A DNA stretch of 63,043 nt, filler included, from Jimgerdemannia flammicorona (GCA_003990765.1; 3 parts of 3 records of this genome joined end to end with filler, not necessarily neighbours in it); one strand, 5' to 3'; positions 9,513-45,361 are shown, counted from the whole stretch's first letter. Notes: generated by a model from the letters alone, not told the origin. Translations and numbers: made by a program.

Positions 9513-9543
9513 GTTGGGGTCTCTATTACAATATTCTTTCAAT

Positions 9544-12500: not shown

Positions 12501-13200
12501 CCTGTGGCCTGAAGCCTGGCAGAGGGTTAGAATTGGTGAGGAGTGGGATTGAAATGGACTCTGGCTTTGGAGCAAATGGGTGAGGCAGTGGCTGCCCCCC
12601 AAGTTCTGGGTGGTGTGGTGGTGAGTCCTATGGCAGAATATGATATTAAACTATTGGTCTGGGCACTTGGTGGATGGTGGAGTATTCGAGTGTGAGGAAT
12701 GTTTCAATGTTGATCAGAAGGGAGGAGTGGTATAAATACCTGAACATTGGCTTGGCAAGTACGAGATTTTGAAGGAGTTTTGGAGATATATCATAGACTG
12801 GTTAGGGTTGTGTGCCTTGGAGGGAGGGGAAGGGGGGAGATGGGGAGAGCTCTGCCAGAGACTGGTGGGTGGGATTGGGGATGAATGGCTGACTCTTGGT
12901 TGGGCTCTAGCTATATGGGTTGGATTGGCTGGGCATTGGGTTCATATATTTGAGGAGGGATGGTGGGTTGGAGTTGGGGATAAGGTGGTATATTGGGAAT
13001 GGTTATTATTGGACATTTTGAATAGCTGGTGGTGAGGGTGGGGGCCAGGTGGGGGGAATCACAGGGGTTTGATATAGTATATCTCTCAGAAGAGTGGTGG
13101 AAGGATTCAGGTAGTGGGTGATTGGGTTGTGCTCAGGCAGGGAGAGGTCGAGGGGGGAGAGTTGGGTCCATGGGACATTGGTTGAGGGTTTGGGGTGACA
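9544..13200 (+). pseudogene. LINE ORF2 (AP endonuclease + reverse transcriptase)
   Basis: Motifs in ORF fragments starting at 9514, 10987, 11428 and 11950; many premature stops. Confidence 0.88.
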
Positions 13201-15121: not shown

Positions 15122-15159
15122 AACTTTGAAATATACTTTTGATCTATTTATTGAAGAAA

Positions 15160-18100: not shown

Positions 18101-20952
18101 GTAGGGATGCTGGGAGGCAGAGAAGGAAAAGAATAAGATGTGCTTCAAATTAGTTGATTAGATTATAGATAGAATGGGCAGATTTGATATCTTCTGGAGA
18201 GGTGGGTGATTGGAGGTTAGAGCATGCAAAATTGGAGGTAATGGAGCTGTAACAGATACTGAGAGAGGAGGAGGAAGTACATATGAAAGGAATGGCAGCC
18301 AGGCTGAGGTGGCAGGGGCTTGAGGAGGTAGAGAGGCCTACTAGGTACTTATCAAGGCTCCTCCAGGCCAGGAGAGTGAGGCATTGATGAGATGGAGTCC
18401 TTGATACAGAGGGGGAAATGGTGTATGGCATACAACAGATCTTGGGAGTACTGAAGGAGAGGTGGAGGGGTCTGTGGAGTGAGGAGGAAGGGGGTGAGGA
18501 TGAGGAGGCAATTGGAGATATGTTGGAGGATTGAGATCTACTACAAGTAGAGGGCCTTGGTGACTTAATCCTATCAGTTCAAGAGGAGGAGATCTAGTGA
18601 GTTCTTATAGCAACTAAGCTTGGAACAGCACCAGGAGAGGATGGGTTACCTTGGGACTTTTGGAAGAAGATGGCAAAGGTTCCTGGAGTGATAGAAGAGA
18701 TGGCAGCCCTCTGTGACCATGTTCTTCTGAATAGTGAGTGAGTTGGTGAGTAGGACTTAGGGTTGGTGACCTTGTTATACAAATATAAGGGGAGGAGAGA
18801 GGACTGGAAGAACTGGAGACTGATCATACTTCTGGATATAGACAGGAAGATGGTGACCAAAGTGATTGTTGCAAGACTATAGAAGGTTACTAAACAGATG
18901 TTGGGTAAGGAGCAGTGGGGCTTTATTAGAGGCAGGCTTATCAGAGGTGGGACTGTCTGGGTTCATGGCATTATTGAAGAAGTATGGGCTTGTGGATTGG
19001 ATGGAAGGCTGGTCTTTTTGGACCAGGAAAAGACCTATAACTATGTTCGGTGGGTATAGCTGGGTAAGGTGCTGGATAGAATTAGTATTCTCAAATGATT
19101 TCAAGCTTCTATGTTGAATCTGTTGGAGGGAAGTAGGGCAGCACTATTGTGTAATGATCACTGAAGTCTAGCATTCTCTTTGAGAAGAGGAGTTCCTCAG
19201 AGAGATCTATTGTCTCTTATCCTCTATGCTCTTTTGCTAGAATCTTTGATGGATAGAATATAACAGAAGGTGGTAGAGTTCTCTATATATGGTGTGGTGT
19301 AGAAGGTGGGGGCCTTTGTGGATGATATGGTAGTTGGACTTAGCTCAGTAGTGGATGTTGAGATACTTAAGGAGACAGTGGAATGGTATGAGATATACTC
19401 TGGGACAAAACTCAACTGACATAAGTATGAGACAATAGTGCTGGGGAATTGGCTAGTAGGAGGGGATATCATTGGAACAATTGTCCCTACAGGAGAGGCA
19501 GTGAGGTATCTGGGCATCTTTCTTTCTATATATGGTTCTGTCTTACCATAGGTGTGGTGGGAGAGGAGAGTGGCCATTTGGGGGGAGGCTCTTAGAGGTT
19601 AGGGAGGTCACCACATCTCCTTAACAGGCTAGGTATCAATTCTGAATATCTACTGGTTCCCCAAGCTGTGGTATATTGCTTATCATTTGGACTTTCTAGC
19701 TTGGATTGTGAAGAGACTAATGAAACTGGCTAGAGATTGGATTTGGGCAGGGTAGTGGTCCCAGATCAGTTGGGATACTCTTGCAATACTGGTGGTTCAG
19801 AGAGGACTAGGTCTAGTGGATTTTCCTAAGAGACTGCATTGTCTGTGAGCAAAAGGACTTTTGAATTGCAGAGAGGGGGCTGGGTGCCACTGATGTAGAA
19901 GGTATAGGAGATAAGATTCTCCCCATAAGGGTCCTCAGGAGATTTTCTATCTCTGGTGGGTTTGGATGGAAGCTGATGGCTACAGTATAAGGGCTTCTGG
20001 TGGGGGGTGATGGATGGAGCACACTGAATAGGCCTGCACTGGTGTAGTAATGAGGGGGAGATGCTGTGGGGTCCAGCTATGTGGCAATAAGACAGACTAT
20101 TTCTGGGGGGTATTCCACTTGCTGAGTTTGACATTGGTGAAGGAGTAGAGTGTCAGTGGGGACTTGGTCAGGATCTATGGCCAAGTAGTTGGCAGGTAGT
20201 GAGGATTGGTGAGGAGTGGGACTGGGCAGGAGTCTGGTCATAGAGTGCTAAAGTGCAAAGGTGGCTCTCTCCCAAGTTCTGAGTGGTATAGTGGTGGATG
20301 CTGCAGAGGAATATCATGTTGAATTTCCATGCTGAACATCTGGTGGATGGTGGACAATTAGATTGTGAGGAGTATTATAATATAGGGCAAGTTGGAGGAT
20401 TTGTACAGATACCAGAATATTGGTTGGGAGAGTGTGAGGTTCTGAGAGACTTTTGGATAGTGGTAGGAGACTAGATAGATATGGAGAAGAGGCCAGATGG
20501 AGAGAGAGGTTACTGGGAGGATTTGAAATCTCAGTTAGTGAGTGGTGTGAATAATGGATGACTCACTATAGGGTGGGTTCTAGCTATATGGGTAGGGCTG
20601 ACTGGACATTGGCTCTTTGTTTTTAAGGAGGGGTAGTAGATGGGTATATAGGAGAAGTTGTTAAGATAAGAGGGGTTGATGGATGATTTGCTGACTGGGT
20701 GGTGGGTTGGTTGGGGTCCCCAGGGTGGGCAATATCACTATCTGGTAGAAGGGATCTATAAACAGAGTAGTGGGTAGATAGTGATAGTGAATAACAAAGT
20801 AGTCTTTTATTAAGAAAGAGTAGAGGGGGGGAGGAGCCCCCTAGGGGGATTGGGTAGGGGTGGGCACAGTGTATTATATAGAGGATAGATAAGGTATTAA
20901 TAAAGGAAGGAGTCTAAGTAACTATAAAAAAAAAAAAAAAAAAAAAAAAAAA
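15160..20952 (+). mobile_element. Second, diverged L1/Tx1-like LINE with poly(A) tail at contig end
   Basis: ORF1 homologue 15388-15885; APE start FSLNVNGL about 17255; RT GAFVDD about 19310; A-tail from about 20926. Confidence 0.88.
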
Positions 20953-21052
20953 NNNNNNNNNNNNNNNNNNNNNNNNNNNNNNNNNNNNNNNNNNNNTTAA
21001 TTAATTAANNNNNNNNNNNNNNNNNNNNNNNNNNNNNNNNNNNNNNNNNNNN
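20953..21052. other. Artificial contig spacer
   Basis: 44 N + TTAATTAATTAA (stops in all six frames) + 44 N. Confidence 0.97.
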
Positions 21053-21873
21053 ACTTTTAAAATCATAATAGCTTTTAAAAAAAAATTTACCAATAATTTT
21101 TTATATAATAATTCTACCTTTGGTAAAAATTTTATAAAAAAAAAAAAAATTGATTTTAAACAAATTGAGATATATTTTTAACAGAAAAACAATATTTCAA
21201 AAAATCATTTTTTTCAAACTTTAATTTATCTATTAAATGATTTTAAAAGACAATCTTATTTACAGACAAAGGGATATATGTATACATAAATATGCAAACA
21301 TATATATTGACAGATCAGTCTTCAATAATTTACAGTACTGATGATGCTTCAAGTCAAATATCTCTGATAGTTTCACAGAGGAAGAAGAAGGCCCAGTGGG
21401 AGCCAAGGGAGTAAACCTAGAGCCAGTGTCAAAGTGAATGGAAGACATGTGGAAAGGCATGTATAAGGGGGACGAATAAAGAACGTAACCAAAAATGCAT
21501 CAGCTGTTTATTGCTACATAGAAATGTGGTCCTTATATACAAAATATGATATCCCAAAAGGAAGGACATGCCACAACTCGGGGCAAACCAAATTAGGAAC
21601 CACATGACCACCAGAGATAGGTAGAGATAAAGGGGGAGCCAATCCCAGTTACAGGATAAAAATCACAAACAAACACAAACAAAACAAATCCAAATCAAGA
21701 TTAAAAAACATCTGCAGATCCCAGAGGGGTGAGCATGAGTGAGGGGTGAGGCTAAAATGGAGCGAGCCACAGCAAGCTCGAGCGAAGCAAGGGACCGAAG
21801 GCAGCAGAGGGGAGCAGAGTAAGGCTGAGACCTCAGAGTGAGTGCGAGACCCCGGAGGGGGCAAGGATGTTTT

Positions 21874-23928
21874 TTAATCCTCTCCAGCAGAGCTGGAGGC
21901 ACTAGAAGGTGATGAAAATGCAAAATAAGAGTGATGGATTAAAGAAGAAATGGAAGGAAGACATGAACGAGCAATCAGAGGGCATCGAGAAAGAGATGAA
22001 AGTCCATGACATGAAAGAGAAGAGTGCAGGACAGTATCAGGACATTGAGCAACCCAATGAGTATGATCAAATGGTATAACAAGAATCGGGGGTGAGAAAG
22101 AAGAGGGAGTATGGAGAGGGTAAGGGGGGAGAGAGGGAAGGGAAGGAGGATAAAGAGGAGAGAGGAGAGAAGAGCAAACAACAGACCATTCAATAGAAGC
22201 AAGCAGATCGCGAATGATAGAAATAGGGTAGGTATGATGATGGACCACAAAGTTGCTAAGAACCTGAATAGCAGACACCCAATCAGAATGACAGGAGCAG
22301 CAAAGTGCAAGATGACGAGCCTTACCATGAACATATTTAAGAAGAGTATGACAAGGATAATTGGACAAGAAGTCAGGGAACTGTTGGAAATGGGAAAAAT
22401 GGGAATAAACAACAGTTTGAAAGAGAGAAAGAGAAATGGAGAGGTTCAAAAAGGGAATACTAGTCATACTGCACACTCAGTTAATGGAATGGTGGGGAGG
22501 GTAGACATCCAAGAACACACTAGGAATATCTATACCAGCAACAGCAAAGACAATAAAGTCATCGATATATCAGTGAAAGAAGATATCTCCAGCTCGGAAC
22601 ACAATAGAAAAAGATGAAGTAATATCACGTAACACACACAACTCATGGGCCAGACCAACAAGGTTGGCAAGGGTGGGGGCACAATTCATTCCCATGGCGA
22701 TACCAGAAGTCTGGTGAAAGGAGCCAAGGGCTGACTCAAAATAATTAGAGCCGCAGACAAGGAGTATAAGCTCAACGATGGAAGCCAGTGAAACTAGGAA
22801 ATCTAAAGGAAAAACAATGGAGCCCAAGAAGTGAAGGCAGGCATTGATCTCATCAAAACGAATAGCAGTATAAAAGGAGGAGAAGTCATCAGAGGCCAAA
22901 TGGGAAAAATGGTGAACAGGCACAATGGTAGAGCAGAGAAGGGCGAGCTCCTGAGTATCATGAAGAATGGTATACTCAGGCCCAAGATGGTGTTATAAGA
23001 GAGCCATCCAGGAGAGAAAGAAGTGGGATAACTACTTCAAAATCTCAGTGGTAGGAGAACTGTAAGCAGCCATAATGGGACACCAAGCCAAAATAGGCTT
23101 GTAAACTTTAGGAAGAGTATAGAAAACCGGAAAAGAAATATCCAGGGAGGACAAAGAGTCCTGGAAGAAGTTAAAAATGGGGTTCGTGAATGGGGAATCC
23201 AAAAGCAATCTGGCACGAGCCAGAGAAACCCAAAGAAGAGTGAGAATCTCATCCAATCCAAGAGCACTAGGCTCATAAGCCATGGCTCGAAGGAGGGCAG
23301 AAAGGCCATCAAGGTAGAGCAACTTAGGAATAAGTGCAAAACCATGATTCTTATCAGTAACTGTGAGCAAATGCATAGGCAGTTGCTTGACCGATTTAAG
23401 CATGGTATGCATGGTACAGTCTGAAACCAAGCAAGAGTGAGCATGTCCAAGAACAGACAGTGAACAAGCCATGTCGAGGAATACGCAGTATAAAGAGACA
23501 TTGGGAGAGGGGACTCAATCACTAGGAACAAAATAGCGAGAGGGCATCTCACCACGATCTTGAAAGAAAATAGCAAGGTCAAAAGCATGATGAAAACATG
23601 TGAGATGAGCCAGATCAGTGAAGGAGAATTGTGAGGGAGTCACAGGAAAGACAAAGCGAGGATCCAAGGATAAGGCAAAAACTTGAAGGGGAGAAAGGGG
23701 GCAGTCAGCCAAAGAAAAAGAAGGAGACAAAAGAGTTCCAAGAGAAGAGTAAACCCAAAAGTTCGGGACAAGTAACTGGGAAAGATGAAGGGGGGACAAC
23801 ATGAGAAACTACTCAGGGTACACCAGAAGTGACAACAGAATCTGAGAAGGGATGGGGACACTGGGGGAGAACCATGCCGGGGGGAAGTTTAAGAGCAGGA
23901 GGCCTTCCCCTTCTCTCTGACTTTTTTT
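21874..23928 (-). pseudogene. PLE family 1 reverse transcriptase (ORF2)
   Basis: Fragments 23515-23802, 23032-23472, 22570-22923 and 21874-22476 carry PLE N-terminal, palm and thumb motifs. Confidence 0.85.
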
Positions 23929-25118
23929 GAAGGTGGCAAACCCGATGAACGGAAGCACACCCCATCAGAGTGCCACACCTTGTGACCACAGGCTTTCATA
24001 CAGCCCTTACATTCAGGGGTATGGGTGGAGGAGGCAGAGGAGGAACCGGCGGAAGAGGCCAAAGGTAAGCGAGCAGCTGAAGGGGCAGTAGTGCAAGGAA
24101 CACCACCATGAGGACAGATGGACTTGGCTGGGTGCCAGTAGGCATGGTGGAGGCGACTGGAGCAGACAGCGCAAGGCCAGGCCCCGACAGAGTGAGAACC
24201 AAGTTGGCGGCCATGCTTGGGGGCAGGGGGAATGGAGGAAGAAGCCTTGGCAGGGGAGTGAGACTGGGAAGAAGCCGATGAAGCTTGATTGGACTTAGTG
24301 GAGGTCTTGGTGGGGGTCTTAGAGGGGGCCTTGGCGGTGGCAGCAGCAAAGGAATGAATCTCAGCATGAGCAGCAGTACAAGCTTCAGCACAAATGGCCT
24401 CAGAGACCGAAACCTCAGGGGAGGTAGGCAGGGGAGCAGTGGCAGCAGCACGAGCAGTGGCGGCGGCACATGACATCTTCTGCTCGTGAAGGCAAGCAAT
24501 AAAGGAGGTGCTGGTGAGGAGGAAATGATGCACAGCATTGATATTGGCAGCAACAGAAGGAATATCTTGGATGGCAAAGCCACAGAAGGGGGCAGCATCC
24601 AAAAGGCAAGAGGAGGCAAAGGCCATGAAGACGGCACAGACATAGTGGAAGGAGGTGGAGGCAGTAATGGCAGAAGTAGCGGCAGCATCAGCAGTGATGA
24701 GCTTGGCAGTGGCAGTGGCAATACAAACCTCTTCAGAGAGGGCTTGGCGGTGGGCCTCATGGAGAACGGAGTAGCAGATGGTGGGCAGAGTGATGACATT
24801 GACATCATGATGGAGATGAGTCTCCTTGGCAGAGAGGACAAGAACCGACTGGAACTGGGAGAGGAGTGGATGACCAGAGGGACAAAGGTCCAAGGAGAGG
24901 GAAAGGATGGCAGATGAGACATACATCTTGAACAAGACAGTGGTAGGGGTGAAGGTGGGGGGAGGGGGAGAAGGAAGCTCCTCATCCATGAGCTTGTTGA
25001 TAAGGACAGAGGCCCCGAGGACAGGTGGTACAGCAGAGGAGGAAAAAGGCCCAGCGGGAGCCAAGGGAGTGAACCCAGAGCCAGTGTCAAAGTGAACGGA
25101 AGACATGTAGAAAGGCAT
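23889..25118 (-). CDS. PLE family 1 ORF1, Ala-rich, with two CX2CX8WHX4-5C motifs (409 aa, open)
   Basis: CAVCSSRLHHAYWHPAKSIC and CKGCMKACGHKVWHSDGVC near the C-terminus; directly upstream of RT. Confidence 0.75.
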   Translation of the reverse strand: MPFYMSSVHFDTGSGFTPLAPAGPFSSSAVPPVLGASVLINKLMDEELPSPPPPTFTPTTVLFKMYVSSAILSLSLDLCPSGHPLLSQFQSVLVLSAKETHLHHDVNVITLPTICYSVLHEAHRQALSEEVCIATATAKLITADAAATSAITASTSFHYVCAVFMAFASSCLLDAAPFCGFAIQDIPSVAANINAVHHFLLTSTSFIACLHEQKMSCAAATARAAATAPLPTSPEVSVSEAICAEACTAAHAEIHSFAAATAKAPSKTPTKTSTKSNQASSASSQSHSPAKASSSIPPAPKHGRQLGSHSVGAWPCAVCSSRLHHAYWHPAKSICPHGGVPCTTAPSAARLPLASSAGSSSASSTHTPECKGCMKACGHKVWHSDGVCFRSSGLPPSKKVREKGKASCS

Positions 25119-25298
25119 GTATAAGGGGGACGAACAAAGAACATAACCGAAAATGCATCAGCTGTTTATTGCCATGTAGAAATGCAGTCCTTATATACAA
25201 AATATGATGTTCCAAAAGGGAGGACATGCCACAACTCGGAGCAAACCGAATTAGAAACCACATGACTGCCAGAGATAGGCAGAGATAAAGTGGGAGCC

Positions 25299-27359
25299 TG
25301 TAAGAGGGTTACTTTTTAGGGTGACCATTATGTAGTTCTGGAAAGGTTTTCTGGATATTCTGGATATTCTGGAAGACCGTTTTCTTATAGTCAAGATCAA
25401 TTTCGTATGGAGTACGTCCTCTATGCTTATTGATTTCAAGATCGGGTTGATGTCTCAACCAAAGTCCTTTTTTGGACTAGTTCTGGATGTTCAGGATTTT
25501 CCATATTTCAGGAAGTTCAAGAAACTAAGACCAGCTTAGTTGAATTGGTGTATCGCTGCAGACAATACCCAATTAGGAAATTTCGTGACGTGGTTAGGAA
25601 TGGGAGCGGATTTACTTAAGAGTAGTTTGTGGGTTATAGAATAGGTTTATTTGCTATTCATGATATTGCTATACTAGAAGTAGTTGTGTGAAGAGATATT
25701 GTGGGGAAGTATTTAGAAATATTCTTGTGTATTTGAGTCTGTTCAAGTCTGAGATTCTGAGGTCTGGGGGAGGGGGTATTTATACTAGTGAGGGGCTATC
25801 TGGACTATGCTAGATATGGATATAGCACTAAGTGCCTTGCTGAGTCAGAATATAGTCATGTAGTACAAGTGTGATCTGATATGTCAAGAGATCGTCTGAC
25901 TGCTGAGTCAGTTCACAGTCACGTCGTACAATGCTAATCTAACTATACTATGACTGCTAGGCTATTTATGAGTTTAGGCACTATCTGGGTAGTCTTCGAT
26001 GATATCACCATCGATTGTATCATCTCTGATGAAGTAGTCATCTAGGAATAATGGTTTGTGGATTACTTCTCCTTGTTCGCTGAGGTAATAGTACATTGGA
26101 ACTTCGTCTCCATCTCACAGAATAGCATCGTCTGTCTCATATGCTGGATAAGGTATTGGTGAATGAAGAAGTAGTGCATCATCTTCACTTTCATCGGATT
26201 CGCTGTCTGCATACCTTCTATAGGTTACGGCACTGTGAGTTGCGAGGTTGTAGTATGCTGGCGGCTGTGGTTCATGTTGCTCGTACTCTGGTGGTGGAGT
26301 GGTTGGTTCGATTTTGAGGGTTGTCTGGAGGTACAGGTTGTGTTCTCCGGTCTCTTCATTGTAGTTGAAGTAATCAGGGGTGAATGCGAGTTGGTATTCA
26401 TGCCAGTGGTCATTGTCCCAATAAGTCTCGTATACTGTTATGAACTATTGTAAGTTTATTGGCAAGGTTGGCAGAGTGATCAGGGTTGGCAGAGATCCTT
26501 GACTAGAGGTCATGTCGGTATCAGAGGGATCATTGTCTTCTGCTTCATCTTCATCGAAGTAGATTATATCATAGATGTCCTTCATGGCGTATCCAACTTG
26601 GGGCATTTGCAGGATTTGATCATTAGGGTGTGAGAAGATTCTATCTGTAGTTTCGATGTACTCGAGGTACTTGTGGTTGAGTTCTTATATCATGTTATCG
26701 ATTTGGCCATAGGACAGGGTAGCAACCATTTCGCTGGTAGTGACTTGGAGGCAGGGAATAATGGTACTATACTCATAGAAGAGTTCTCGATGTTTGCGGG
26801 CGATGAGCTTCTAGTGTTGAGACATCTGGGTAATGTCTGTATCGTGGTGGTATTCAACCATGTCTTCCAGGAGGCGGCTGATCTGGTAGTAGCTTGAGAT
26901 TTGTCTGATTCGGTGGGCCTTGCTAAGCATGTTCAGAGCATTCCATCAGGCTTCCACGAAGTAGAGGGGTGCCAGGCTATGGATATTCATGAGGAGCAGA
27001 GGGGGTGTGGCTCAGTTGACAATGGCATTCCAAATGTCAGCGCGGATATGGTTGTAGATCTCAGTGGTCATGTTTGTATATTTGGAAGTTGTGGTTGTTG
27101 TTTGTTTTGGTTCTCTGATTCGACGTGTCTCGGTGCTCGGTATATATGCATTTGGTCCTGATTGGTATGATTCTGTTTGTGTAAATCTTGTATTCCGTGA
27201 CTTCGTATTGACTTAGCTTTGTGTGCTGTGACTTCGGTTTGACTCAGCTTCGTGATCAAGCAGGTGATTTCCAGGTTTATTCAGAGGTCGTGTGTGATTT
27301 CAGTGCCTTGTTCAGAGGGTGATGTATAATTTCAGTGACTTAGAGGTTGTGCGCTTACA
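25299..27359 (-). mobile_element. Solo LTR of Gypsy family B (2061 bp) inserted in the PLE pLTR
   Basis: Reverse complement of 49648-51678; TG...CA ends; 5-bp TSD GAGCC at 25294-25298 and 27360-27364; the empty site is visible at about 21635. Confidence 0.93.
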
Positions 27360-27921
27360 GAGCCAATCCCAGTTACAGGATAAAAATCACAAACAAACAC
27401 AAATAAAACAAATCCAAATCAAGATTAAAAAACATCTGCAGACCCCAGAGGGGTGAGCGTGAGTAAGGGGTGAGGCTGAAACAGAGTGAGCTGCAGTGAG
27501 CCTAAGTGAAGCAAGGGGCCGAAGGCAGTGGAGGGGAGCGGAGTAAGGCCGAGACCCCGGAGCGAGTGCAAGACCCTGGAGGGGGCAAGGATGTTTTTTG
27601 ATCTCGATTTGGATTTGTTTTGTTTGTGTTTGTTTGTGATTTTTATCCTGCAACTGGGATTGACTCCCCCTTTATCTCCGCCTATCTCCGGCAGTCATGT
27701 GGTTCCTAATTCAGTTCGCCCCGAGTTGTGGTGTGTCCTCCCTTTTGGGACATTGTATTTTGTATATAAGGACTGTATTTCTACATGGCAATAAATAGCT
27801 GATGTATTTTCAGTTATGTTCTTTGTTCATCCCCCTTATATATGCCTTTCCACATGTCTTCTGTTCGCTTTGACACTGGCTCTGGATTCGTTCTCTTGGC
27901 TTCCACTGGGCCTTCTTCCTC

Positions 27922-30412
27922 CTTATATAATTCTTACTCTAAAATCTGGCAACATTGTACTAAGATAAGAGATGATATTATTTGTAATTATTGTAGGTAA
28001 AAAATTAAGATGCACCTATTGACACTTTTTATTTGACACATACATGATATTGTTTCATCTACTCTTATAAACTGCATCAGCCAGAAGTTCAAAATACTTA
28101 GTAGTATGACTTCAAATATGTATTGATACATAAAAGACAAGTACTCTAACAAAATTAAAAAGAACATGGAGATAAATAAAATCAATATCCAAGCTATGGT
28201 GGATACATTTATCTGATTGCCCAACCATTTCTGTATCAATAATGCCATTTAATCAAAAATATTTAGCCATACTCTTTGGCAGAATTTCAAAATCAGCTTA
28301 TTTACTGGATTGTATATACAGACTAGCCATTCACAACCATCAAGAGTGATTAATTATATAGTATCTTTGGTCTCCTCAAGCATAATTTATATTTGCTAAG
28401 TACCGATACTATTTACAAAGATATCCTGGAGGCCTATAGAAAGGAGCATGATAATCTCTGCCAGATACTTTAGGTAAAATAAGGGCAGTATCACAATCTT
28501 TGCAAGCTGAATTATATAAAAGAGCTCACCAATTTAACCTCATATTCAATAAGCAGAATTCAGTAGGTAAAATCTCATTTACAATTAATACATAGACATC
28601 CTCTAATACAATTTTATTTCTGGATATTACTGGTCATTAGATTGACCTCAATTAGTAGTTTAAATCTCTCACCCTTAACTTTATCAAACTTACTGGCCCT
28701 CATTCTAGAGATAACATCACAGATGCTTTTATTAGTTATATTCAGGAGCTTGAGATCATAACTAAGGTAAAAAAGGGGGACTTGTTATCAGGTTGGCATT
28801 TTGAGAGAGGTCCTAAAATAAACTAGATTTTATTGGTTATTTATTTTCACATAAATTTGCCAATTAAATATTTCAAGTACAGATTTTGGTCATTATGATA
28901 GATAATATTACAAACAACTTAACATTTTTCTAAGTTTTAGTGGCCAGCCTCAAACAGGAAAACATGGCCTTCAGTATAGAAAGCTACTGTATATAATACT
29001 AGGCCTACATACTGAATCTCACTATTCAGGACTATCTTATATATATAGACAAAACATCTGAGAGAGGAGGGGCCCTGAGTATAATTTCCAAGCTATGCAA
29101 ACTGGTTGTGTTGGTCTGATCATCTTCATAATGATGAGACAAATTTACTGCATAGTATAGAACCTTATATTAGATGTCTGTATATATTGGAACTCAACAT
29201 TTGCAATAATCCAGCATGTTCTGGAGTTTGCTGTAGTATGCATTCTTTTTTTCTTTGGTCAGCTGAAGTAACTTGTTTCAGATAATTGAAGATTTATTTT
29301 TTAAAAAAAAAAAAAACAAAAAAAGCCAATAGATTCAACAGTGGCTACTGATAAGGAAATATGAGCTGAGGCTCTAAGTGAAAGCAAGTGAGATGTACTT
29401 AGGAATATTGTCAGAGTTTTGGAAGTAAGTAGTAATTGCTCTGACTTTATACTCATTTTGTCTATCTCTACACTTGTTTTGTCTACCTCTATATAATGTA
29501 ACACCCTCACCATATATAACTGCCAGTGTTTCAATAATTATACAAATAATATAGTCAAACAAATGACCCTGACAATAAGCTCTACAATACTAGTATACAA
29601 TCTTCTGATTGACCAACTAGAGGACAAGCTCAAGGACAGGCTAGAGGGTTATAGTAATTTATAGTTAAGTCTGGATTAGAGAGATACCATGGAGGTTGCT
29701 CTAAGCAAGCTCAGAAAATACTACTTCCAAACAGATACTGACATATATTTAATTAGTACAAGTATGTTAATGTTGGCATATAGTTATTGCCTCTTCCAAA
29801 ACAGAGAAACCCCTACAAAAACTCACTCTTCTTTTCTTTGAATAGTGCTGGACTCACACTTAAAGCTATAATACTATAAAGATTAGGGCTGAGAGCAGCA
29901 CTTTATTGAGAGCACCAAGCAGGCCATAATCAAAGTTTATTGAAAAAACTATACACCACTACAAGGTTCTGGCTGAAGTCCAGATGAATATACTGAGGAA
30001 TCTCTTTTATCCCACATTTACTTTAGCAGAAAGAAGAAGAGGGAGCCATCAGTGAAAGAGCTACTGTCAATAGACAAACTTACCATTTATTTTTCCAGTA
30101 ACTGTATGATCCTGCTGGAGAGTGTGGAGGTGCTCAACTAATAGAAGGTAGGTTGTCAGGCAGACATTAGGCCAATTTAACCCACCAATCTAACCACTGC
30201 TCTACTCACCAGGGTGTGCAGCTACATCAAACAGACTTCTCTAACCTGTATGGTATGACTCAAGACTACCTAGTGATTCCTGCCTCTAGTGCTCCCATCA
30301 AGTAGATGTTCTTAGGTAGGGTGGACCTCATTGTCCCAAAGAGGTGTGCACTGAATGCTGAGATAATTCAGACATATATGTGTCTGAAGTCTTGGTGGGG
30401 CTTGGGTTGCTA
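27922..30412 (+). pseudogene. hAT transposase with introns; 5' end continues at about 21310-21377
   Basis: BED-like SKIWQH...CNYC; LTGPHS; IDNITNN; LILDVC..WNSTFA; C-terminal dimerisation motif DYLVIPASSAPI...CLKSWW. Confidence 0.9.
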
Positions 30413-30529
30413 AAATTCAGTGGGTCCTGAGAGTTTGTGGATAAGTTGGTTGGCCTTATAGAGTATTTAATATCTTTCAAAAATAATAAAAAGGAAAAAA
30501 AAACCTAAGGACTTAGCCTGGAGTTTACA

Positions 30530-31148
30530 GCCTAAGTAGGGCAGTAGTTGGTGGGATTAGTGGTAGTGGTGGAGAGAGTGTACAATATTTGTAGCCCTCT
30601 ACTAGTAGTAAGGAATAGCCCCAAGCTGTCAGTGCCTAGATTGGTGGGCAGGTTAGTGGGTGAGCATGGGGTTGGTGGAGGGAGTGTGCAAAATTTACAG
30701 CCCTCTACTAGCAGCAAGGGGCAACCCCAAGCTACAAGTGTCCAGATCAGGGAGATTGGTAGAGAGGGGGGGTAGGCAGAGGGGGGGGGTAGGCAGAGAG
30801 AGCATGCAAAATTTGTGGTCCTCTGCCAGTAGTGAGGGGCAGCCCCAAGCTATCAGTGCTCAGGTCAGTGGGTGGGATTAGTTGGTGAGGTTGGTGGGTA
30901 TGGGGTTGGTAGAGGGAGTGTGTGAAATTTGTGGCTCTCTATCAGTAGCAAGGGGTAGCCCTAAGCTATAAGTGTCCAGGATGAGTAGGGCAGGTGGAGA
31001 GAGTGCATGAAATTTGTAGCCCTCTGCTAGCAATATAGGAGCAGCTCTAAGCTGCTAAGAAGTCTGGGGCAGAGAGTGCTTCTGGCAGCCAGAGGGTACT
31101 TCTGGTAGTCAGAGGATATTTCTGGCAGTCAGAGGGTGCTTCTGGTGA
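30530..31148. repeat. Tandem repeats between the transposase and cargo gene (about five ~100-120 bp units, then ~20-bp units)
   Basis: Recurring AAATTTGTRGCCCTCTRCTAG...CCCCAAGCT; CAGAGGGTRCTTCTGG four times at about 31070-31146. Confidence 0.8.
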
Positions 31149-31450
31149 TCAAAGTCTACTATAGATCTGAGCCCTATCACCAGTTTGGATCCCATGGACA
31201 CCCTGGCCCTATATTATAGCACTACACTGGTGGCACTACAGAGCAGAGCCAAGGAACCTGTAGGGCCCTGCATAATGGCTAAGCTAGTGCTACAGAAGAG
31301 GTACCCAGTCTAACTCCCTACATAAGACTGTCCAACCTATATAAAATAACTGCTTAACCCTTATGAAAGATTGCCTAACCCTCATAAAAGATTGCCTAAC
31401 CCTCATAAAAGATTGCCTAACCCTCACAAAAACTACTCCACCTACTAGTC

Positions 31451-33586
31451 TCAGGCCTTGATGAGTCTATCATCTATTGTGAGTGTGATGACTATTGTGT
31501 CCAAGCTCTCCTCAAAGGCAATGGTACTATGGTGGTCATGTAGTTGGAATAGGATAGCTGTATTGGCTGCAAATGGGACCCCAAAATCATAGATGAGGTC
31601 ATACCAGACTTTACCACTATTCTCCCAGGTTGGGCCCTTCCTTTCCAGAATATAAAACATTACTAGAGTAATATTGTTATCTATGTATATAGGTAGAGAA
31701 ATATTATGCCTAATATATCCTAATATGATATGAGCATATAGTTAGATGAACCCTTGGCCCAGGACCTCATACTGCTAGGCTGTACTGGTGAATATCTGTC
31801 CTTGGTCCAGCCCTGAGAGTCCCAGCTTGGAAACCTGTCAAAATGGATGGCAATCAGTTAGTCCTTTTTGCATGCAGGGGGGCAGAAACCTCCCAGGCCA
31901 CAGAAATCCCCCAGGCTGCAGCACCCCAAAAAAGCAGAGCTCCTCACCTCATATGGTATGCTAAATTGTACCAAGAATATATATATAGTCATGCTGAGAT
32001 CACCACTAAGCTGGCCTATCATATACTCTACCAATCTGCTCAAAGAACCCCAGATCATAGCCACTACTGCTACACAGGCTATATTGTACTCACATATAGT
32101 TTACTCTTTAACAGTACTTCTAAAGTTCTAGTAGAGATACAGAATCTCATGTATTCCTGAAATTATATCAAAAAGAGTATGTTGGCAAAGAGTGTGATTT
32201 ATCTGAGAAAGAGTAAAAAAAAAGAGAGATAAGTGTGGGGGATTTCAGAACTCCAGAACCCACCCTTCACTAGTATTAAAGTATACCCAATTTCCATTCA
32301 AACCCCCCTTCTTGCTTTTTTTGCCCTCTCTTTCCTGCTATCTGGTATTTGATGCAATCCTCATAAATCTCATTGATATGGCAGCGAAGCTCATTACCAT
32401 AGAGGTTCCTTACCACCATTGCAACCACCTCTTTATGTTCATTAATAATAATATAGTTCTCTTCATTATTAGTTACTCCTGCTGGTCAATGGACCCCTTG
32501 GTCAAGAACAATTGGCTCTGATTCAAATATAGACCCCTAAGCCTTGATGACAATGCTAGTATTACTCATGCTGAACATCTTGCCCTCAAATTTCTCTATT
32601 TGATCAGACACTGGACATAGTTGAACTTGGATAACTTTGAACTCTCCTTTCCAATAGAACTGAGCCCTAATCTGAGGGACCAAGATAAGTATTCAGACAG
32701 ATTGTATGTGGATAGGTTACATGTAGATAGATTGCATACAGATAGGTTGGGTGTGGACAGGTTGCATGCAGACAGATTGTGTGTAGGTGGATTGTATATA
32801 GATAGGTTGTATGTGGGTGTAGGTGTTTTTTAGGGAGAGACCATATAAAAAATGAAATTAAATAAAATACAAAGATAGATATTTCAGAAAAAGAGCATAA
32901 GTGAGTAAGTGAGTGAGCTGCATACCGATGAGTTACATACTGATGAGTTGCACAAGTTGCACAAAATTGCTCATGAAGGCTTGCTTCTGTTCCTTTTGAG
33001 ACCTCTGCTATGCGATGTATTGACTCAACAGTTCAGTCACCAAAGATATGTCCTGCAATATCCACCAGCCTTTCTTTATCTTGATCGGATGTTGTGAATA
33101 AAGTCAGCAGATCTTGCTGTAGAGCTGTGGACCCTAAGAAAAGTATAAGATAAATTGGATTATACTAGAGAAATTTAAATAAATATAAGTAAACAAGTGG
33201 CAGCTAAGTGAGTAACCTACATCTACTATTGGCTGCTCTAAAAAGGCTGCCATGTATATAGCTGTGAGGTCTGTGAATTCTGAGGTCTGAAGGGCTGCCA
33301 TAAGTTATTGCTAGAATTCTCTCTTATCTCTGCCATCACCACCACCATCACCACTGCCATTACCACCACTATCACCATTGCCATCACCACTACCATCACC
33401 ACTGTCATCACTCCTTTGGCTCTTGATGAGCAGCTTATATACTGCCCATATGAGAAAGAATCTAACATTATTAGTAGAGAGTATGTTTCTACCTTGAATA
33501 CTCTCTCTTTTGGTAATCATTGCAGGGTGAAAAATGAGTAGACTGGACCAATGTATGAATTAAGGGCTGCTGTTTTGTTTGCTCAT
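31451..33586 (-). pseudogene. Multi-exon decayed gene resembling fungal TET/JBP 2OG-Fe(II) dioxygenases
   Basis: One frame from about 31835 to 31451 reads GYIRHNISLPIYIDNNITLVMFYILER...SGKVWYDLIYDFGVPFAANTAILFQLHDHHST. Single transition reversals restore HxD and FQP..HHGT. GT-AG introns upstream. Recognised by eye only. Confidence 0.55.
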
Positions 33587-33844
33587 GATGTGGTAGAAAA
33601 GAACAAAGAAAAATAACAAAGAAAAGAACAAAAGAAGAGAGGGAACAAAAGGAAAGGGTAATGTTACCAAAGTATGGTAGAAAAAAAATAATAAGAGTGA
33701 AATGAATAAAAGAAAGGGTGATGTCACTAAAGATTTCAATCCAGATCAGAGCATAAGACCAATCTGAGTTGATTCAAATCTATCACATAATGAATCTGAA
33801 TCAAATCTCATCTGGATCAACTCTATCTGTTTGGAGTACTACTT

Positions 33845-34530
33845 GGATATAGTAGTGATTTAGTATATAGTATAGGTGTTCTCTATATAGTATGATAATC
33901 TCTATATAATATAATGAGTTTCTTATGTAATTTCTACATAACAATTATATTTTCAAAAGTATGTGATTTCTGGCATAATGATCTTAGTGGTATTCTGTAT
34001 ATGGATTTGACAGATGACTCAATTTGATATAAACTCTCTTAAATTGACTTTTCTGAGAATATTAGATAACTTGATAACTTGGATAGCTCAGATGATACAA
34101 ATAACTCAGATGTTATGAATTCTTTCTAAATCAAGCTAACTGGGAATAGATAAATAACTTGGATGGCAGATAATTCAATAACTTAGATAACTCAATATCA
34201 TATATTCTTTCTAAATTAGTGGGCTTCTGAGAAATAACTCAGATGGTACAGATTCTTGATAAAGTTATATCAAAAACTGGCTTCATTTATACAGAGTTAC
34301 ATTATAGACTAGCTCTACTGTGAAGTTATATCAGAAGACTGACTTGTGGTAAGAATAGTAGGCTTCTCTGGAAATAACAGATAATCCAAATGTTAAGAGA
34401 CTTCTTGAAAATAGTAGCTCTTCCTTAAATAGCAGATTTTACTTCAAAAGATAGTGAAGTTCTTTACTCAAACTTTGGTAGCAAATCTTCAGACTTATCT
34501 GATAAGTGAATCAAAAATAGACTCATTCTT
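33845..34530 (-). repeat. Fragment of the LTR-like repeat seen at 14099-15121
   Basis: Reverse-complement match to about 14560-14850. Confidence 0.6.
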
Positions 34531-34575
34531 TACACTATATTATAATATATTGATCAATACTAGTAACATACCTAG

Positions 34576-35209
34576 TAGTACTCTAAATCAGTTAATTTAA
34601 TCCAGATTAGATTCAGATTGGATTTAGATTGAATCTCATCTGAATAAACTCAGATGGAAAATGAGTTGATCCAGATTGATTCAAATTAATCATTATTTTG
34701 ATTTCCAAATTAGACAATTAAATGTTTATATTAATAACTTAATAAATAATTATCTAATTTTGATGATCTTAGTATTATTTGAAAGCCCTTAATAAGGCCT
34801 TTCTAATGATATCAAGAATATCAAACTTAGATTACACATTGCCAAGCTATTAAGGAAAATGTTCTTTTGAAGAAATATCCAAAATTAGTAAGTCAAATAA
34901 TTTTTAAAATTGGTAAGTTAGATATTTTCCTTGATAACTAAGCAATATATGATCCAATTTCAATATTTTTGATATAATTAGAATGGCCTTATTAAAGGCT
35001 TTCAAATGATATCAAGATCATCAAAATTTGATAATTATTTATTAAGTTATTAATATAAATATTTAATTGTCTAATTTGGAAATCAAAACAATAGTTGATT
35101 TGAATCAATCTAGATAAGATTTGAATTCCATCTGAGTTGATCCAGATGAGATTCAATCTGAATCTAATTTAAATCTAATTTGGATTAAATTGACTCATTT
35201 AGAATACTA
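34576..35209. mobile_element. Fully palindromic hAT-family MITE (~630 bp) inserted in a Copia fragment
   Basis: TAGTACTCTAAAT...ATTTAGAATACTA; the two halves are reverse complements nearly to the centre; TSD not recognisable. Confidence 0.8.
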
Positions 35210-35878
35210 TAGATTACCAAACTATATGCTACTAAACTTTAGCTTTTATAATAGATGTATGATAAAAAAAGCTTCCTGATGACCTTTTTAGAAATAGATA
35301 AAGCAAGTAACTGGTATTCTTAATATAATATATATAGATATATATATCTATAGTCTCATATAAATGGCAATATACTTTAGAAAGAAGTATTTTATTACTT
35401 TCATTGACAATTATACTTATAAAGTCTATATATACTTTCTTATGATAAAGAATGAGATATTTAAAAAATTCTGAGAATTTAAGACAATTGTAGAGAATGA
35501 AATGAGATATAAGATACAGACCCTATACTTAAATAATAGTAAGAAATATATCAACAAAGCTTTCAGATACTTCTTGAAGAAGTATAATATCCAATACTCT
35601 ATAATAGCTCTCTATACATCTGAGTAGAATAGTGTAGTAGAGTACTTCAATTAAACAATAGTAGAGATGACTCAAATAATGATGAATATAACTAACTTAC
35701 TATACTTCTTCTGGGCTAAAGTAGTAAATATAATAGTATATATCTAAAATTATTATATTTCTTGAGCTTTAAGTAAAGACTCTAGCAGATTCAATAATAA
35801 TTAATAATCTAGAGAACAATAGTGATCTTATCTCTAAAGAATTATAAAGTAGATCTAAGCCAGATATTTTATATCTAT
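35210..35878 (+). mobile_element. Copia integrase fragment, same family as 3958-14098
   Basis: KYFITFIDNY motif at about 35385; colinear with 5410-5750. Confidence 0.8.
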
Positions 35879-38800: not shown

Positions 38801-39130
38801 AGGTATTATGAGCTTTTCTCCTTTTCTAAGTATGATGTTGTCTAGTTTAAACTGTTTCCAAGTCTGGTTTATGATGGTGATTGTCCAGAGTTTAAGGTGG
38901 TTGGGTATCTTCCACTACTCAAGATAGCTGATTAATCTATAGTATAACTCCTTATTAATATTAAATAGTCTTGATGGGGGTATTTTGGAGTATTCTTGAG
39001 AGTATATCAGCATTGGCATTAGTTCTTCCTGGGTGGTACTTGACAGTACAGTTATACTCTTACAGTCTGTAGATTTATCTGACATATATTTCTTTGAGGT
39101 CAGGCCTTTTATACATGCTCCTCTATGTCT
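35879..39130 (-). mobile_element. Gypsy A 3' part: RNase H end, integrase, PPT and 3' LTR (35879-37420)
   Basis: YHPGRTNANAD, CDKCQK, IAIDIIGPL and a GPF motif; purine tract at 37421-37430 adjoining the LTR. Confidence 0.88.
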
Positions 39131-39295
39131 AAGCCACTAGGAGAGTAAGTATCTCAAGTTTTGGAGATTATAAATATAGGCTCCAAGGAGTGCCAACAGG
39201 TGTATCTCATCTCTTAGATATAGGAGTCCCACCTGGTCTTTTTGGTGTAGCCATAGCTTCTAGTTTCAGCAAGTTATAAAGATTCCAAGAATTTT

Positions 39296-40375
39296 GGGCA
39301 AGATGGCAAGATAGCAAGATAGCAAGATAGCAAGATGGCAAGATAGACAAAATGATAAGACAGGCAAGAGGGGTAAGATGGACAAGATGGGCAAGATGGG
39401 CAAGATGGTAAGATAGGCAATAGGGGCAAGATGGATAGACAATAAGATGGGTGATATGGGTAAGATAGGCAAAATAGGTATACAAGCAATACAGACAACA
39501 TGAGCAATATGAGCAACACAGATAACATGGACAACATAGGTAATATGGGCAATACAGACAGGCAAGACAGGTAAGATAGACAAGACAGGCAAGATGGATA
39601 AGATGACAAGATAGCAAGATAGGTGACATGGGCAAGATAGGCAGATGGCAAGATAGGTAACATAGACAAAATAGGCAAAATGTGCAATATAGACAATATA
39701 GACAACACAAACAACATGAGCAATACAGGCAATACAGGCAGGCAAGACAGGCAAGACAGGCAAGACAGACAAGATAGGTAAAATGGGCAAGACAGCAAGA
39801 TGACAAGATGGGCAACATGGGCAAGATAGGTAAGATGGGCAAGATGAGCAAGATGGGTAAGATAGGCAAGATAGACAAGATAGCAAGACAGCAAGATGGG
39901 CAACATGGACAAGATAGATAGATGGCAAGACAGGTGATATAGGCAAGATAGGCAAAACAGACAAAACAGGCAAAATGGGCAATATAGACAATATGGGCAA
40001 TATGGGTAGACAATATGAGCAATATAGATAATACAGACAATATGGGCAACATGGGCAATACAGGTAACATAGATAGGCAAGATGGGCAAGATAGACAAGA
40101 TAGACAAGATGGCAAGATGGGCAACATGGGTAAGATAGGGAGATGGTAAGACAGATGACATAAGCAAGATAGGCAAAATGAGCAAAACAGACAACATGGG
40201 CAATATAGGCAATATGGGCAATATGGGCAACATGGGCAATATGGACAGACAAGATGGGTAAGATGGGTAAGATAGGCAAGATGGGTAAGATGAGTAAGAC
40301 AGCAAGATAGCAATATAAGTAATATAGGCAACATGAGTGAGCAAGATGGGCAAGATAGGCTAGATAGGTAAGATA
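39296..40375. repeat. Degenerate 9-mer minisatellite (GGCAAGATG / GGCAATATG)n, ~1.1 kb
   Basis: Directly visible; accounts for the three overlapping low-complexity ORFs at 39207-40353. Confidence 0.92.
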
Positions 40376-40638
40376 GAAGATACTAATAGAGATAGGTCAG
40401 GTGTACTAGATACCAAATACTTGAGATGGTTGGGGCTCACAACCCATACCCACTGGGTGGGGCAGGCTGGGTAGGAGAATCTAGTTACTTGGGCAGTGAG
40501 GTTGCAACTTATATCCTAAAGGTATAAGGCTGAGTGAGTGTGAAGGTGGGTTGATATTGGAGTAGAATGGGGCTACTGATGTTATATGAGAATATGTGAT
40601 ATGTTATAGATAGTTAATAAATGAGGCTATAGCCTATA

Positions 40639-40641
<3 letters not shown>

Positions 40642-40696
<55 letters not shown>
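40642..40696. repeat. (AT)n microsatellite
   Basis: Directly visible. Confidence 0.95.
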
Positions 40697-40698
<2 letters not shown>

Positions 40699-41002
40699 CT
40701 TTGGAGTTTAGAGTGTAGAATGGCCAGGCAAGAGTGGAATGGTCTGTTTGAATAGTGAAGTATTTCCCAACTAGGTAGTAGTGGAACTTATCTACTGCCC
40801 AAACTACTACTAAGTATTTAAGCTTGTATAACTCATAGTTCTGTTCTGCTCTGGGGATACCTTGTCTTGTATAAGAGATGGTATATTTATATCCATCTTT
40901 CTTCTGAGCTAAAACTGCTCCAAGTCCTATAGTACTTACATCTGTCTACAGGATGAATTTTAGATTCTAATCTGGTCTTCTGAGAATGGATGCTTGGGGA
41001 CC

Positions 41003-42002
41003 TTTCACCGGTAACATTCAGGTGACACAAGATTTGGATAACACTTTCCGCGAAGTTTTTGGTGAAAAGCTACTATCAACATGGCGAGCAACGAGCAAAC
41101 TGGGGGGCAGGTCGGCCAGGGGGGCAGCCGGGCCTTCGACTGGCAGCAGGTTGGGAGGAAACGAGGAGATGGTTTGGGGATGCCAGGGCCGTCTGTGGTG
41201 GGCAGCGGCACTGGGGGTGGAGGGAGAGGTGGACTGAGGCAGAGAGGTGGGGGGAGGGCGACCTTTGCCAACAAGGTCAGGATGGGGAAGATGGCCACAG
41301 GGCTGGATGGTTGGTTGGGACTGGGAAAGGCGATGCCGGGTTCAGGAGGAGGGCAGGGAGGAGCCCCTATGGGAGCCTCCGTCGGTATGGGGGGAGGGGG
41401 AGTAGGGGTTGGAGATGTGACTGCTGATGGGGCTGTGACGGAGAATCTGGAAAAAAATCCAGATGTGATGGTGGTTGGTGGATCTGGTCAGAGGGAGGGC
41501 ACGAGGCCCGGGGACCTGGCAGATGGAGTGACAGGCATGGTGTCGGCACTGTTACTCAAAAAGTCGAGGTCCGAATTCGCGGTCACATTGTGTTTCCGAG
41601 GCTTGGCAGTGACTGCGAGGATGATTCTGGGGCTGGTGGCGCAGGAGGTGAAGGGGGCAGCTACGGTCAAGTTCATGAAGGGGAAGGAAGGGATTGAGGT
41701 TGGGTTTGAAGAGGTGTCGATGCTGGAGGCTATGGAGAAAGGGGTGGTAGTGGGTGGAGTGGTAGTTCCTATGGCGAGGTGCATGCGCTGGGACCCGAGA
41801 GTGGTGCAGTTGACGGTGCTGGATCTTCCTACGGTGTCGCGGGAGAGGGCTAGGGAGTTGATTGTGGAGGTGGTAAAGGAGTATGGAGATGTCATCGATA
41901 TCGGGTTCAAAGTCTGGGAGGGTACGGAACTTAGAACTGGAGATGTTGATGTGAGAGTACGCTTGTTTGGTCGGGAGAACACAGGGAAGGCGAGGGACTG
42001 GC
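41003..42002 (+). mobile_element. Young LINE copy, 5' end with open ORF1 from 41081; truncated by contig end
   Basis: Homologous to 7516-8515 but CpG-rich and free of stops. Confidence 0.88.
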
Positions 42003-42102
42003 NNNNNNNNNNNNNNNNNNNNNNNNNNNNNNNNNNNNNNNNNNNNTTAATTAATTAANNNNNNNNNNNNNNNNNNNNNNNNNNNNNNNNNNNNNNNNNN
42101 NN
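42003..42102. other. Artificial contig spacer
   Basis: 44 N + TTAATTAATTAA + 44 N. Confidence 0.97.
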
Positions 42103-43423: not shown

Positions 43424-45361
43424 TTTACAATCCAATTCTGCTTCAAAATGCTTCCTCACCCTGCTACAAACCCTTCTGAGAATTCCTACAAGTTGGTATA
43501 AAGCCCAACCTCTGAACTGGAATTTATCCTGAACTATCTGACAATCTGGAGAGAATTGAACCTGATGTACAAGAACAATTTGACCTCCACACCTGCAACA
43601 AGTGGAACAAACTTCATTCAAAGAAAGAAGTACTCAGGTTAAACCAGCAAATAGGTGAAACCCTATTCACTGAACTCCTTGCACTACACCCAGCAAGTCA
43701 AGACAAAGAAGGTCTTATTGAAGCCTTCTTTACTCTTCTCAACAAGAGTTTTGTCAGCTCTACAAATCCGAGTAACCTAGGATAACCAGCAGCAGTCTTT
43801 CTAGCCTTAGTTTCTCACAAAGCCCAAGCCTCTATAGCTAAGTGGCTCAACTCTACCAACTTTCACCACACCAGGACCAAGACTGCCTTATACTACTAAT
43901 TCCAGAACAGCAAGGCCCGCCATATCCTTAAAGAAGAAGCAAGAGAAACCCTTCATCAACTACCTGACCCCGAACCTGAAGCAGGCCCTGCTACAGCCCT
44001 ACCTGAATCTGAAACCAATACTGAACCTGAACTTAACTTTGAATTAAGTCCATCTGAAATCAGATATACAACTGATTCTGTCTACTTTGATACCAAGCAA
44101 ACCCAATTACACAGGGACCAAACCGAAGAAGAGGAGGAGTATCTCAGTGAATTTGATCCCAGATATATCACCGAAGGAGAAGTACCTCCATCAGGACAGA
44201 ATACACCTACACAGTAACAAACAGTTATCTATCAAGCCCTCACTCCAGATCCACAACTACTACTCCAGCAACTTACACAGACCCAAAGAACACCATCACA
44301 CTCCACACTAGTATCTCAAGTAGTACCAGTAACACCACTACCAGTAGTCCAACCATTACTGCCTTAGCTGAACAGATCCGACCTACCAAAAATCTGAGCC
44401 TACCTACCTTCAATGGTACTGTACAAGAAGTCCAAAGCTTCATTAGTATAGTTGATACTAACTTTGAAGCCAATCAATGGACCAATGAGCGAGTTGCCGA
44501 CTGTGTTCTGACAAACAATCAAGACCACACCCTGGAACAACTCTTTGCTACCACTACAGCCTATGTCCACCGAGTTGTTACATTCTTCCGAGGACCTGCC
44601 AAAGAATGGTGGCAAACCCTCTCTGAAAAACCCCTCACATGGGATACCAGACCTGCAGTAGTTGCCCAGAATACAGCAAACAATGCCCCAGATATGGAGT
44701 CCATCCTGCAGCCTCTGGACTCAAACAACTTATAATTGCCCAATACTGCAGCAAAACCATGATCGCTGAATCCCAAGTAAAACTCTGCAACCTCAAATTC
44801 AATATATATGGCAAAGAAGAATTCGAAACCTTCTGTACAAAACTTGAGTCACTCCTGAACACTGTTGGCCTAGGATACATTGCCAATGATGAAGCACAAA
44901 ATGGTACAAGAGCAGACCATTTGTTTGATGCTCTGCCTGAATGGCTTACTAGAAAAATCCAAGAACAAGGTCGCCCAGTTGGTTGTGATCACCAACAATG
45001 GTGCCTGGCAAGAATCAAGACTATGGTCAAGCGAATTCTAACAGCTGGACCAATTCTGCCCCGAAGGCAATTCAACAACAAGGAAAAGACTTGGACCAAG
45101 AAAGAAGAACCCAAGCATGAAGCATCTCGAGCTCCCTCCACATCCACCTCTTGGACACCCAGAAATCATGAACCCACCCAGCTAAGTACCTTCAAGAAAC
45201 TTACTGAAGGCGAAAGGAATGAACTTCAAAGAAGTGGAGCATGCTTTTATTGCCAAAAGACAGGACACATGGCCAGTGCCTGCTCTAACTGAAAACCCCA
45301 AACAGCAACATGAGCAACTGTCACCACTCTGCACTACCTCAACAACCTGACCACCAGAACA

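Follow-up and report, generated by a model that had tools for sequence, protein, structure and literature searches.

Did a hAT transposon in the genome of Jimgerdemannia flammicorona (GCA_003990765.1) once carry a TET/JBP-like dioxygenase gene as its cargo, or have the remains of two unrelated elements come to rest side by side? The question is posed by positions 27924-33846 of a 63,043-nt window, by which I mean the whole stretch of DNA that was analyzed, three parts of three records of this genome joined end to end with filler. An earlier annotation, made from the nucleotides by themselves (the sequence-only reading), saw there a hAT transposase on the plus strand converging on a decayed, spliced gene on the minus strand and took the second to be a TET/JBP-like passenger of the first. 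The convergent arrangement holds up: a hAT dimerization domain scores above its cut-off on one strand, and the other is matched in phmmer and tblastn searches. What lies here is one DNA transposon copy, truncated and in decay, together with a TET-like gene, and the pairing is present in this DNA. That the gene encoded a predicted dioxygenase and was also the cargo of this hAT is a joint statement, to which I give a probability of roughly 0.55.

The transposase half is recognized by its domains. With stops read as X, Pfam finds Dimer_Tnp_hAT (PF05699) at 30222-30395 with an E value of 5e-5; its 23.4 bits exceed the cut-off of 21.4. A zf-BED domain at 27938-28042 gives a weak match (E 0.11, 13 bits) that falls below its cut-off. 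Between the two lie blocks that I take, by eye and from known motifs rather than by any tool, to resemble the DDE catalytic core of hAT transposases. The reading frame is interrupted by many stops, with fragments scattered across all three frames, and a search of PDB sequences with this frame returned 0 matches.

The gene facing it, a multi-exon gene in decay, occupies about 33514-31430 on the minus strand. Positions 31451-33586 of that strand, translated with stops as X, served as the phmmer query against 1,835,955,588 cluster representatives at E<=0.001, and from all of these 5 proteins matched (P0001 to P0005), every one a singleton on a short metagenome or Logan contig. The last exon is matched by P0001 (136 residues, E 1.5e-47, 68% identity), P0002 (134 residues, E 1.1e-18, 42%) and P0005 (374 residues, E 1.6e-09, 29%), the last being the sole full-length relative. 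P0003 (128 residues, E 2.1e-14, 36%) matches 32602-32285, and P0004 (112 residues, E 3.5e-14, 45%) matches 33514-33212, query residues 25-125. By tblastn, residues 4-133 of P0001 fall on 31819-31430 at 67% identity (E 8.5e-54), P0002 finds the same exon at E 4.6e-27, and residues 234-345 of P0005 fall on 31831-31502. In the middle exon, residues 10-111 of P0003 fall on 32602-32294 (E 6.6e-21) and residues 92-153 of P0005 on 32485-32303, with a weak continuation out of frame at 32318-32262. Independent proteins match three separate blocks, so the gene is real, multi-exon and decayed. The acidic block furthest upstream may be its 5' exon or may be a separate small open reading frame (ORF); the full-length relative P0005 lacks it. 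The window holds 1 copy of the TET-like gene. Coordinates of these and the other features are collected in Table 1.

Table 1. Features of the hAT/TET-like locus and its immediate surroundings, in window coordinates.
Feature	Position	Strand	Basis or remark
End of a separate, younger repeat family	27360-27923	+	3-copy comparison
Decayed, 5'-truncated hAT transposase	27924-30410	+	Pfam domains, ORF fragments
Spacer of tandem repeats between the convergent genes	30560-31431		self-BLAST and Tandem Repeats Finder
Tandem-repeat array in spacer	30567-30980		unit of ~110 bp
Tandem-repeat array in spacer	31070-31145		20-bp unit x3.8
Tandem-repeat array in spacer	31351-31431		21-bp unit x3.9
Last exon of TET-like gene, double-stranded beta-helix core	31430-31831	-	tblastn; 3 in-frame stops
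Middle exon of TET-like gene, N-terminal half of the domain	32262-32692	-	tblastn; 2 in-frame stops, probable frameshift near 32303
Tandem-repeat array within the element, intron of TET-like gene	32702-32814		15/30-bp unit
Upstream block, acidic G/D-rich repeat	33212-33514	-	phmmer match P0004
Tandem-repeat array within the element	33330-33411		12/24-bp unit; encodes acidic G/D-rich stretch
Terminal-like sequence, probable right end	33804-33846	+	likeness to the ends of the neighboring foldback element; end ~33844, possibly up to 33900
Foldback or MITE-like element, ~640 bp	34571-35214

Attempts to enlarge the family brought in little. Searching for homologues from P0005 at near lengths gave P0006 as the sole match, and at shorter lengths none; a search with profile A1 returned the query alone among the best 8000 candidates listed. 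P0006 led to two metagenome loci, L001 and L002, while P0001 led to no confirmed locus. The two loci (1-3666 of L001, 1-2870 of L002) are 99% identical over 2717 nt, have a normal CpG observed/expected ratio of 1.2, and a GC content of 34%. In L001 at least three exons of the TET-like relative are intact (733-1185, 1266-1448 and 1531-1953), and it reads VHVD...VHGTT; over the third exon of L002, no ORF of at least 80 residues is listed. A likeness, noticed by eye, between the P0004-like block and the ORF that precedes the L001 gene drew no support from BLASTP, where E was an insignificant 25. Short repeats of the GATTTGA/GATTCGA type are found at the 3' end of L001 and are reminiscent of the subterminal motifs of the window.

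What kind of enzyme might the gene have encoded? The sequence-only reading quoted a peptide from the last exon and suggested that three reversions would restore an H-x-D...H iron triad. The peptide is that of the ORF at 31451-31741 (minus strand), and the Y codon lies where it was said to lie, at 31685-31687. It stands in place of the first ligand, H; the D is kept (31679-31681), as is the second ligand H (31529-31531), and the spacing of the triad in this copy is 52 residues. The closest relative, P0001, carries all three of the proposed residues (H, P and G), with PTHTD against PIYID in the window and FQPHDLHGT against FQLHDHHST. The H expected at the first position is found in every intact relative that covers the core: H-x-D and a later H-G-[S/T] occur in 5/5 (P0001, P0002, P0005, P0006 and exon 3 of L001). 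The window copy itself lacks H as its first iron ligand and is therefore a pseudogene; comparison with its relatives supports the view that the change from H to Y would be inactivating. TET/JBP enzymes have a conserved Arg that binds 2-oxoglutarate (2OG) downstream of the second His; in the aligned segment no invariant Arg follows H-G-[S/T], the alignment being shallow at 5-6 rows.

It is very probable that the minus-strand gene encoded a TET/JBP-like 2OG-Fe(II) dioxygenase, where the name claims a likeness and not membership at the level of Pfam. The identity is supported because the HxD...H motif is present in all 5 relatives, because TET folds take the first four places for two different models, and because the neighbors in protein space carry the PF20515 annotation. 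The models are AlphaFold2 predictions for P0005, model 1 from a 5-row and model 2 from a 9-row alignment. Among 48,161 chains, NgTET1, TET2, CcTet and CMD1 rank 1-4 for both. For model 2, VIA-align scores these at 13.1, 11.1, 10.3 and 10.2, respectively, with the next row at 9.8, and nearly all of the remaining rows are 2OG-Fe(II) oxygenases. For model 1, NgTET1 and CcTet fill the top ten PDB rows in Foldseek, the best with E 7e-3 and probability 0.82, and after them come PHD2 and CMD1. In the ESM Atlas, the cluster next to P0001 is from Basidiomycota and bears the name 'Tet-like 2OG-Fe(II) oxygenase'; 72% of its members have PF20515 (score 0.91, 178 shared features). P0001 also has a structural neighbor cluster in which 28% of members have PF12851. 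The first match of P0005, scoring 0.96, is another cluster from Basidiomycota, 15% of whose members have PF20515.

A good deal can be said against this assignment. Neither PF12851 (Tet_JBP) nor PF20515 was found by Pfam at E<=10 in P0001-P0006, in 2 exons of L001 or in pieces of the window, nor in the frames of the window at E<=1 or of L001 at E<=0.1. PDB sequence searches with P0005 alone and with profile A2 gave 0 matches. The models are of low confidence: model 1 has a mean pLDDT (predicted local distance difference test) of 45.1 and a pTM (predicted TM-score) of 0.53, model 2 has 43.9 and 0.46, and the increase from 5 alignment rows to 9 did not raise the confidence. For model 2, ranks 2-4 lead the generic 2OG oxygenases by less than 1.5 Z; for model 1, Foldseek put 0 of 500 counted rows at E<=0.001; and the protein modelled is 29% identical to the gene in the window. 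These same figures are what one would cite if the gene encoded some other 2OG-Fe(II) oxygenase, prolyl-hydroxylase-like or AlkB-like. With TET folds ahead of all others for both models, and with PF20515 in the Atlas neighbors, I regard that as quite improbable. The sequence-only reading's TET/JBP identification thus stands as regards fold and iron-binding motif, while the Pfam Tet_JBP check gave no match.

Whether the two genes belonged to one element is a harder matter. I hold it somewhat better than an even bet that they did, and it is plausible that the TET-like gene was the cargo of this hAT. On one side of the gene is the transposase and on the other a terminal-like sequence (33804-33846) that is common to a neighboring miniature inverted-repeat transposable element (MITE), and self-BLAST found no other repeat boundary within 27924-33846. 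The two halves are equally eroded in CpG, which I count in favor of one element. Just 5 CpG are left in these 5.9 kb, with observed/expected ratios of 0.01 in the hAT part and 0.05 in the TET-like part (0.16 in the whole window), and the sequence-only reading was right to call the erosion strong.

One might instead suppose that an ordinary gene of the host has decayed beside a fragment of hAT and was never the cargo of a transposon. It is present in a single copy within the window, and its introns and exons are those one would expect of a cellular gene. To accept this, one must accept that a host gene has lost its CpG to the same degree as the repeats around it, has gathered at least 5 stops and lost an iron ligand, abuts at its 5' side a sequence like a transposon terminus, complete with subterminal repeats, and has relatives solely on short metagenome fragments, as is typical of repeats. 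I consider it very improbable indeed.

The left side of the element is missing from the window. The range given in the sequence-only reading begins at 27922, yet no end of the element lies there: another repeat family stops at this point, with 3/3 of its copies ending at a matching base. The three copies in the window (27360-27923, 21376-21879 and 25034-25298) share an end base at 27923, at 21376-21379 and at 25034-25037; 27590-27923 is 87% identical to 21712-21379 and 27664-27923 is 89% identical to 25296-25037. Since 27923 ends a different repeat, the hAT must be truncated at its 5' side, within 15 nt of the BED finger. The repeat that truncates it has a CpG observed/expected ratio of 0.43, as against 0.01 in the hAT, and is judged the younger because it is less eroded. 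The left side of the hAT has been cut by a younger insertion or rearrangement. Within the truncating repeat there is an internal inverted repeat of 77 nt (27360-27436 and 27590-27666, 94%).

On the right side, the terminal-like sequence is matched in inverted orientation, over 43 nt at 74%, by 34571-34613 at one end of the MITE, and contains a motif of 20 nt (33804-33823) that is the exact reverse complement of 35134-35153, in the other arm. It starts AAGTAGTACTC, its counterpart in the MITE starts TAGTAGTACTC, and the three ends (the right terminus and both ends of the MITE) align from CC[A/T]AGTAGTACTC inward. The arms of the MITE are themselves inverted copies, 34576-35000 against 35209-34784 at 79%, with 85% over the outer 146 nt. 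The MITE may be a non-autonomous relative of the hAT/TET element. An attempt to recover its insertion site through a neighboring repeat (14590-14846 compared with 34234-34517) found no continuation.

Is this a hAT terminus? Terminal inverted repeats (TIRs) of hAT elements are short, with the consensus YARNG, and insertion duplicates 8 bp of target site. Several observations at the locus count against one hAT element. The terminus begins TAGTA or AAGTA, departing from YARNG at the fifth base. An AT-rich flank leaves its outer limit anywhere within 33844-33900, and no target site duplication (TSD), of 8 bp or any other length, is readable for the element. Searches of the window for a left TIR, a partner TIR and a second copy of the terminus gave none. 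At about 300 bp, the arms of the MITE are unusual among hAT derivatives, and the sequences flanking it, ACATACC and GATTACC, agree by eye at 4/7 positions, which is not decisive. The hAT-type terminus that the sequence-only reading set at 33841 is thus a terminal-like sequence indeed, with its superfamily not fixed and its end anywhere from 33844 to 33900. Two further points tell against a single element: there is but one truncated copy in the window, with its left end missing, and L001 and L002, where the relative is a more distant one, show no Pfam domain, hAT or other, in the flanks of the gene that their contigs provide, 730 bp on the upstream side and 1.7 kb on the downstream side. What survives of the cargo claim is a gene lying between a transposase and a terminus-like sequence, in a single truncated copy, with neither a TIR pair nor a TSD.

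An alternative view takes these defects at face value. The hAT remnant would end at 30410, and the TET-like gene would be part of an abutting, unrelated element of another superfamily (Harbinger/PHISTA, EnSpm, IS3EU, Dileera, ESTA or Helitron); the terminus near 33844 and the MITE would both belong to that element. The misfit of the terminus to YARNG and the long arms of the MITE that shares it would then cease to be puzzles, as would the presence of the gene in L001 and L002 with no detectable hAT domain. Nesting is heavy here, with at least 3 other repeat families within 8 kb, and the 1-kb spacer of tandem repeats could conceal a junction. There is precedent as well, since genes of the rust type ('PU type') of transposon TET are known from seven transposon lineages (Kojima 2025, Biology 14:1741; PMC12730594). 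The same paper, however, makes hAT one of the TET-bearing (TET+) lineages richest in families, with twenty. Neither a terminus nor a repeat boundary turned up between the two genes, and, with the three ends aligned, the terminus bears at that point no signature of those quoted for the other lineages (no TAYGG); about 15 nt outward there is a CACTAC (33854-33859, reverse strand). On balance I find two abutting fragments somewhat unlikely, and keep to a single hAT element that carried both genes.

The remainder of the window adds some context. An ORF at 44627-45292 (plus strand) has a zf-CCHC zinc knuckle (E 2.9e-4) and is probably the Gag of a long terminal repeat (LTR) retrotransposon; in 12 long ORFs elsewhere in the window, Pfam found nothing beyond one zf-CCHC. 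Positions 27000-27310 match 49976-49665 at 89%, and pieces of that part of the window are thus repeated beside the hAT/TET locus. Three stretches, 8000-13000, 15000-21000 and 39000-42000, show a strong skew of G over C (0.3-0.57) with several frames open at once, which suggests low-complexity or satellite-like DNA. Four runs of 44 N lie within 20953-21052 and 42003-42102.

I propose that a single non-LTR, cut-and-paste transposon of the hAT superfamily, now dead, left the remains seen in this region, and that beside its transposase the element carried a convergent, intron-containing gene for a TET/JBP-like Fe(II)/2OG dioxygenase. The gene would correspond to the PU-type transposon TET, as described in PMC12730594. 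In an active copy, the enzyme would have held Fe(II) in its H-x-D...H triad, bound 2OG, and most likely oxidized 5-methylcytosine in the DNA of the element itself or of its vicinity. Such oxidation would counter both silencing by methylation and the methylation-dependent mutation of the transposon's C to T, and the two genes would have moved together. If so, then this copy appears to have lost the contest: it has almost no CpG, stops in both genes, a Tyr at the first iron ligand, and its left end removed at 27923.

How does this compare with systems already described? The sequence-only reading knew of no described pairing of hAT with TET, and there it has been overtaken. Twenty TET+ families of hAT elements, called 'hAT7' and found in six species of Puccinia, were published in December 2025 (PMC12730594), and a literature search on hAT7 gave no further relevant paper. 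The paper gives hAT7 a TSD of 7 bp, unlike the 8 bp that the sequence-only reading expected; at this locus none is readable. It also relates that TET genes have repeatedly passed from one transposon superfamily to another, that by HHpred the PU-type TET is closest to CMD1, CcTET, NgTET and TET2, and that the role proposed for these genes is to evade silencing by methylation and hypermutation of C to T. As in the Puccinia families, the locus brings together a hAT transposase and a rust-type, TET/JBP-like gene in CpG-depleted, transposon-rich DNA, and, as with the PU-type TETs described there, NgTET1, CcTet, TET2 and CMD1 are its nearest structures.

The layout is another matter. In three of the twenty hAT7 families, hAT7-1_PCor, hAT7-2_PCor and hAT7-1_PHor, TET precedes the transposase and shares its orientation, whereas here it lies downstream and convergent; the comparison takes in those three layouts. 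The locus also recalls the Kyakuja-Dileera-Zisupton (KDZ) TET/JBP transposons of Basidiomycota mentioned in PMC12730594, which likewise join a DNA transposon to a TET/JBP gene, but the transposase here is that of a hAT, as judged by Dimer_Tnp_hAT. The solved structures of CcTet from Coprinopsis cinerea and NgTET1 from Naegleria are the best fold matches, and H-x-D...H is found in the relatives of the window gene; aligned identity is about 8-15%, with no match at the level of sequence. CcTet is of the AG type and not the PU type, in the classification given in PMC12730594.

The locus is, then, a real, dead, truncated example of a recently described class. Since the pairing of hAT with TET was in print by December 2025, it opens no new question. 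Its value is that of an annotation point, possibly a new family, host or layout for the catalogue of TET+ elements, and otherwise its interest is low. One could go further and suppose that a hAT lineage outside the six species of Puccinia captured a PU-type TET gene independently, in a convergent layout, with an acidic G/D-rich N-terminal block and with long-armed foldback MITEs sharing its termini. I offer this tentatively and think it unlikely. If it were true, the shuffling of TET genes among transposon superfamilies would take in a host and an architecture not documented before. TETs borne by transposons are a proposed counter-defense in fungi, directed against silencing by methylation and against the C-to-T mutation that methylation drives, and a fossil as thoroughly mutated as this one fits an arms race that the element eventually lost.

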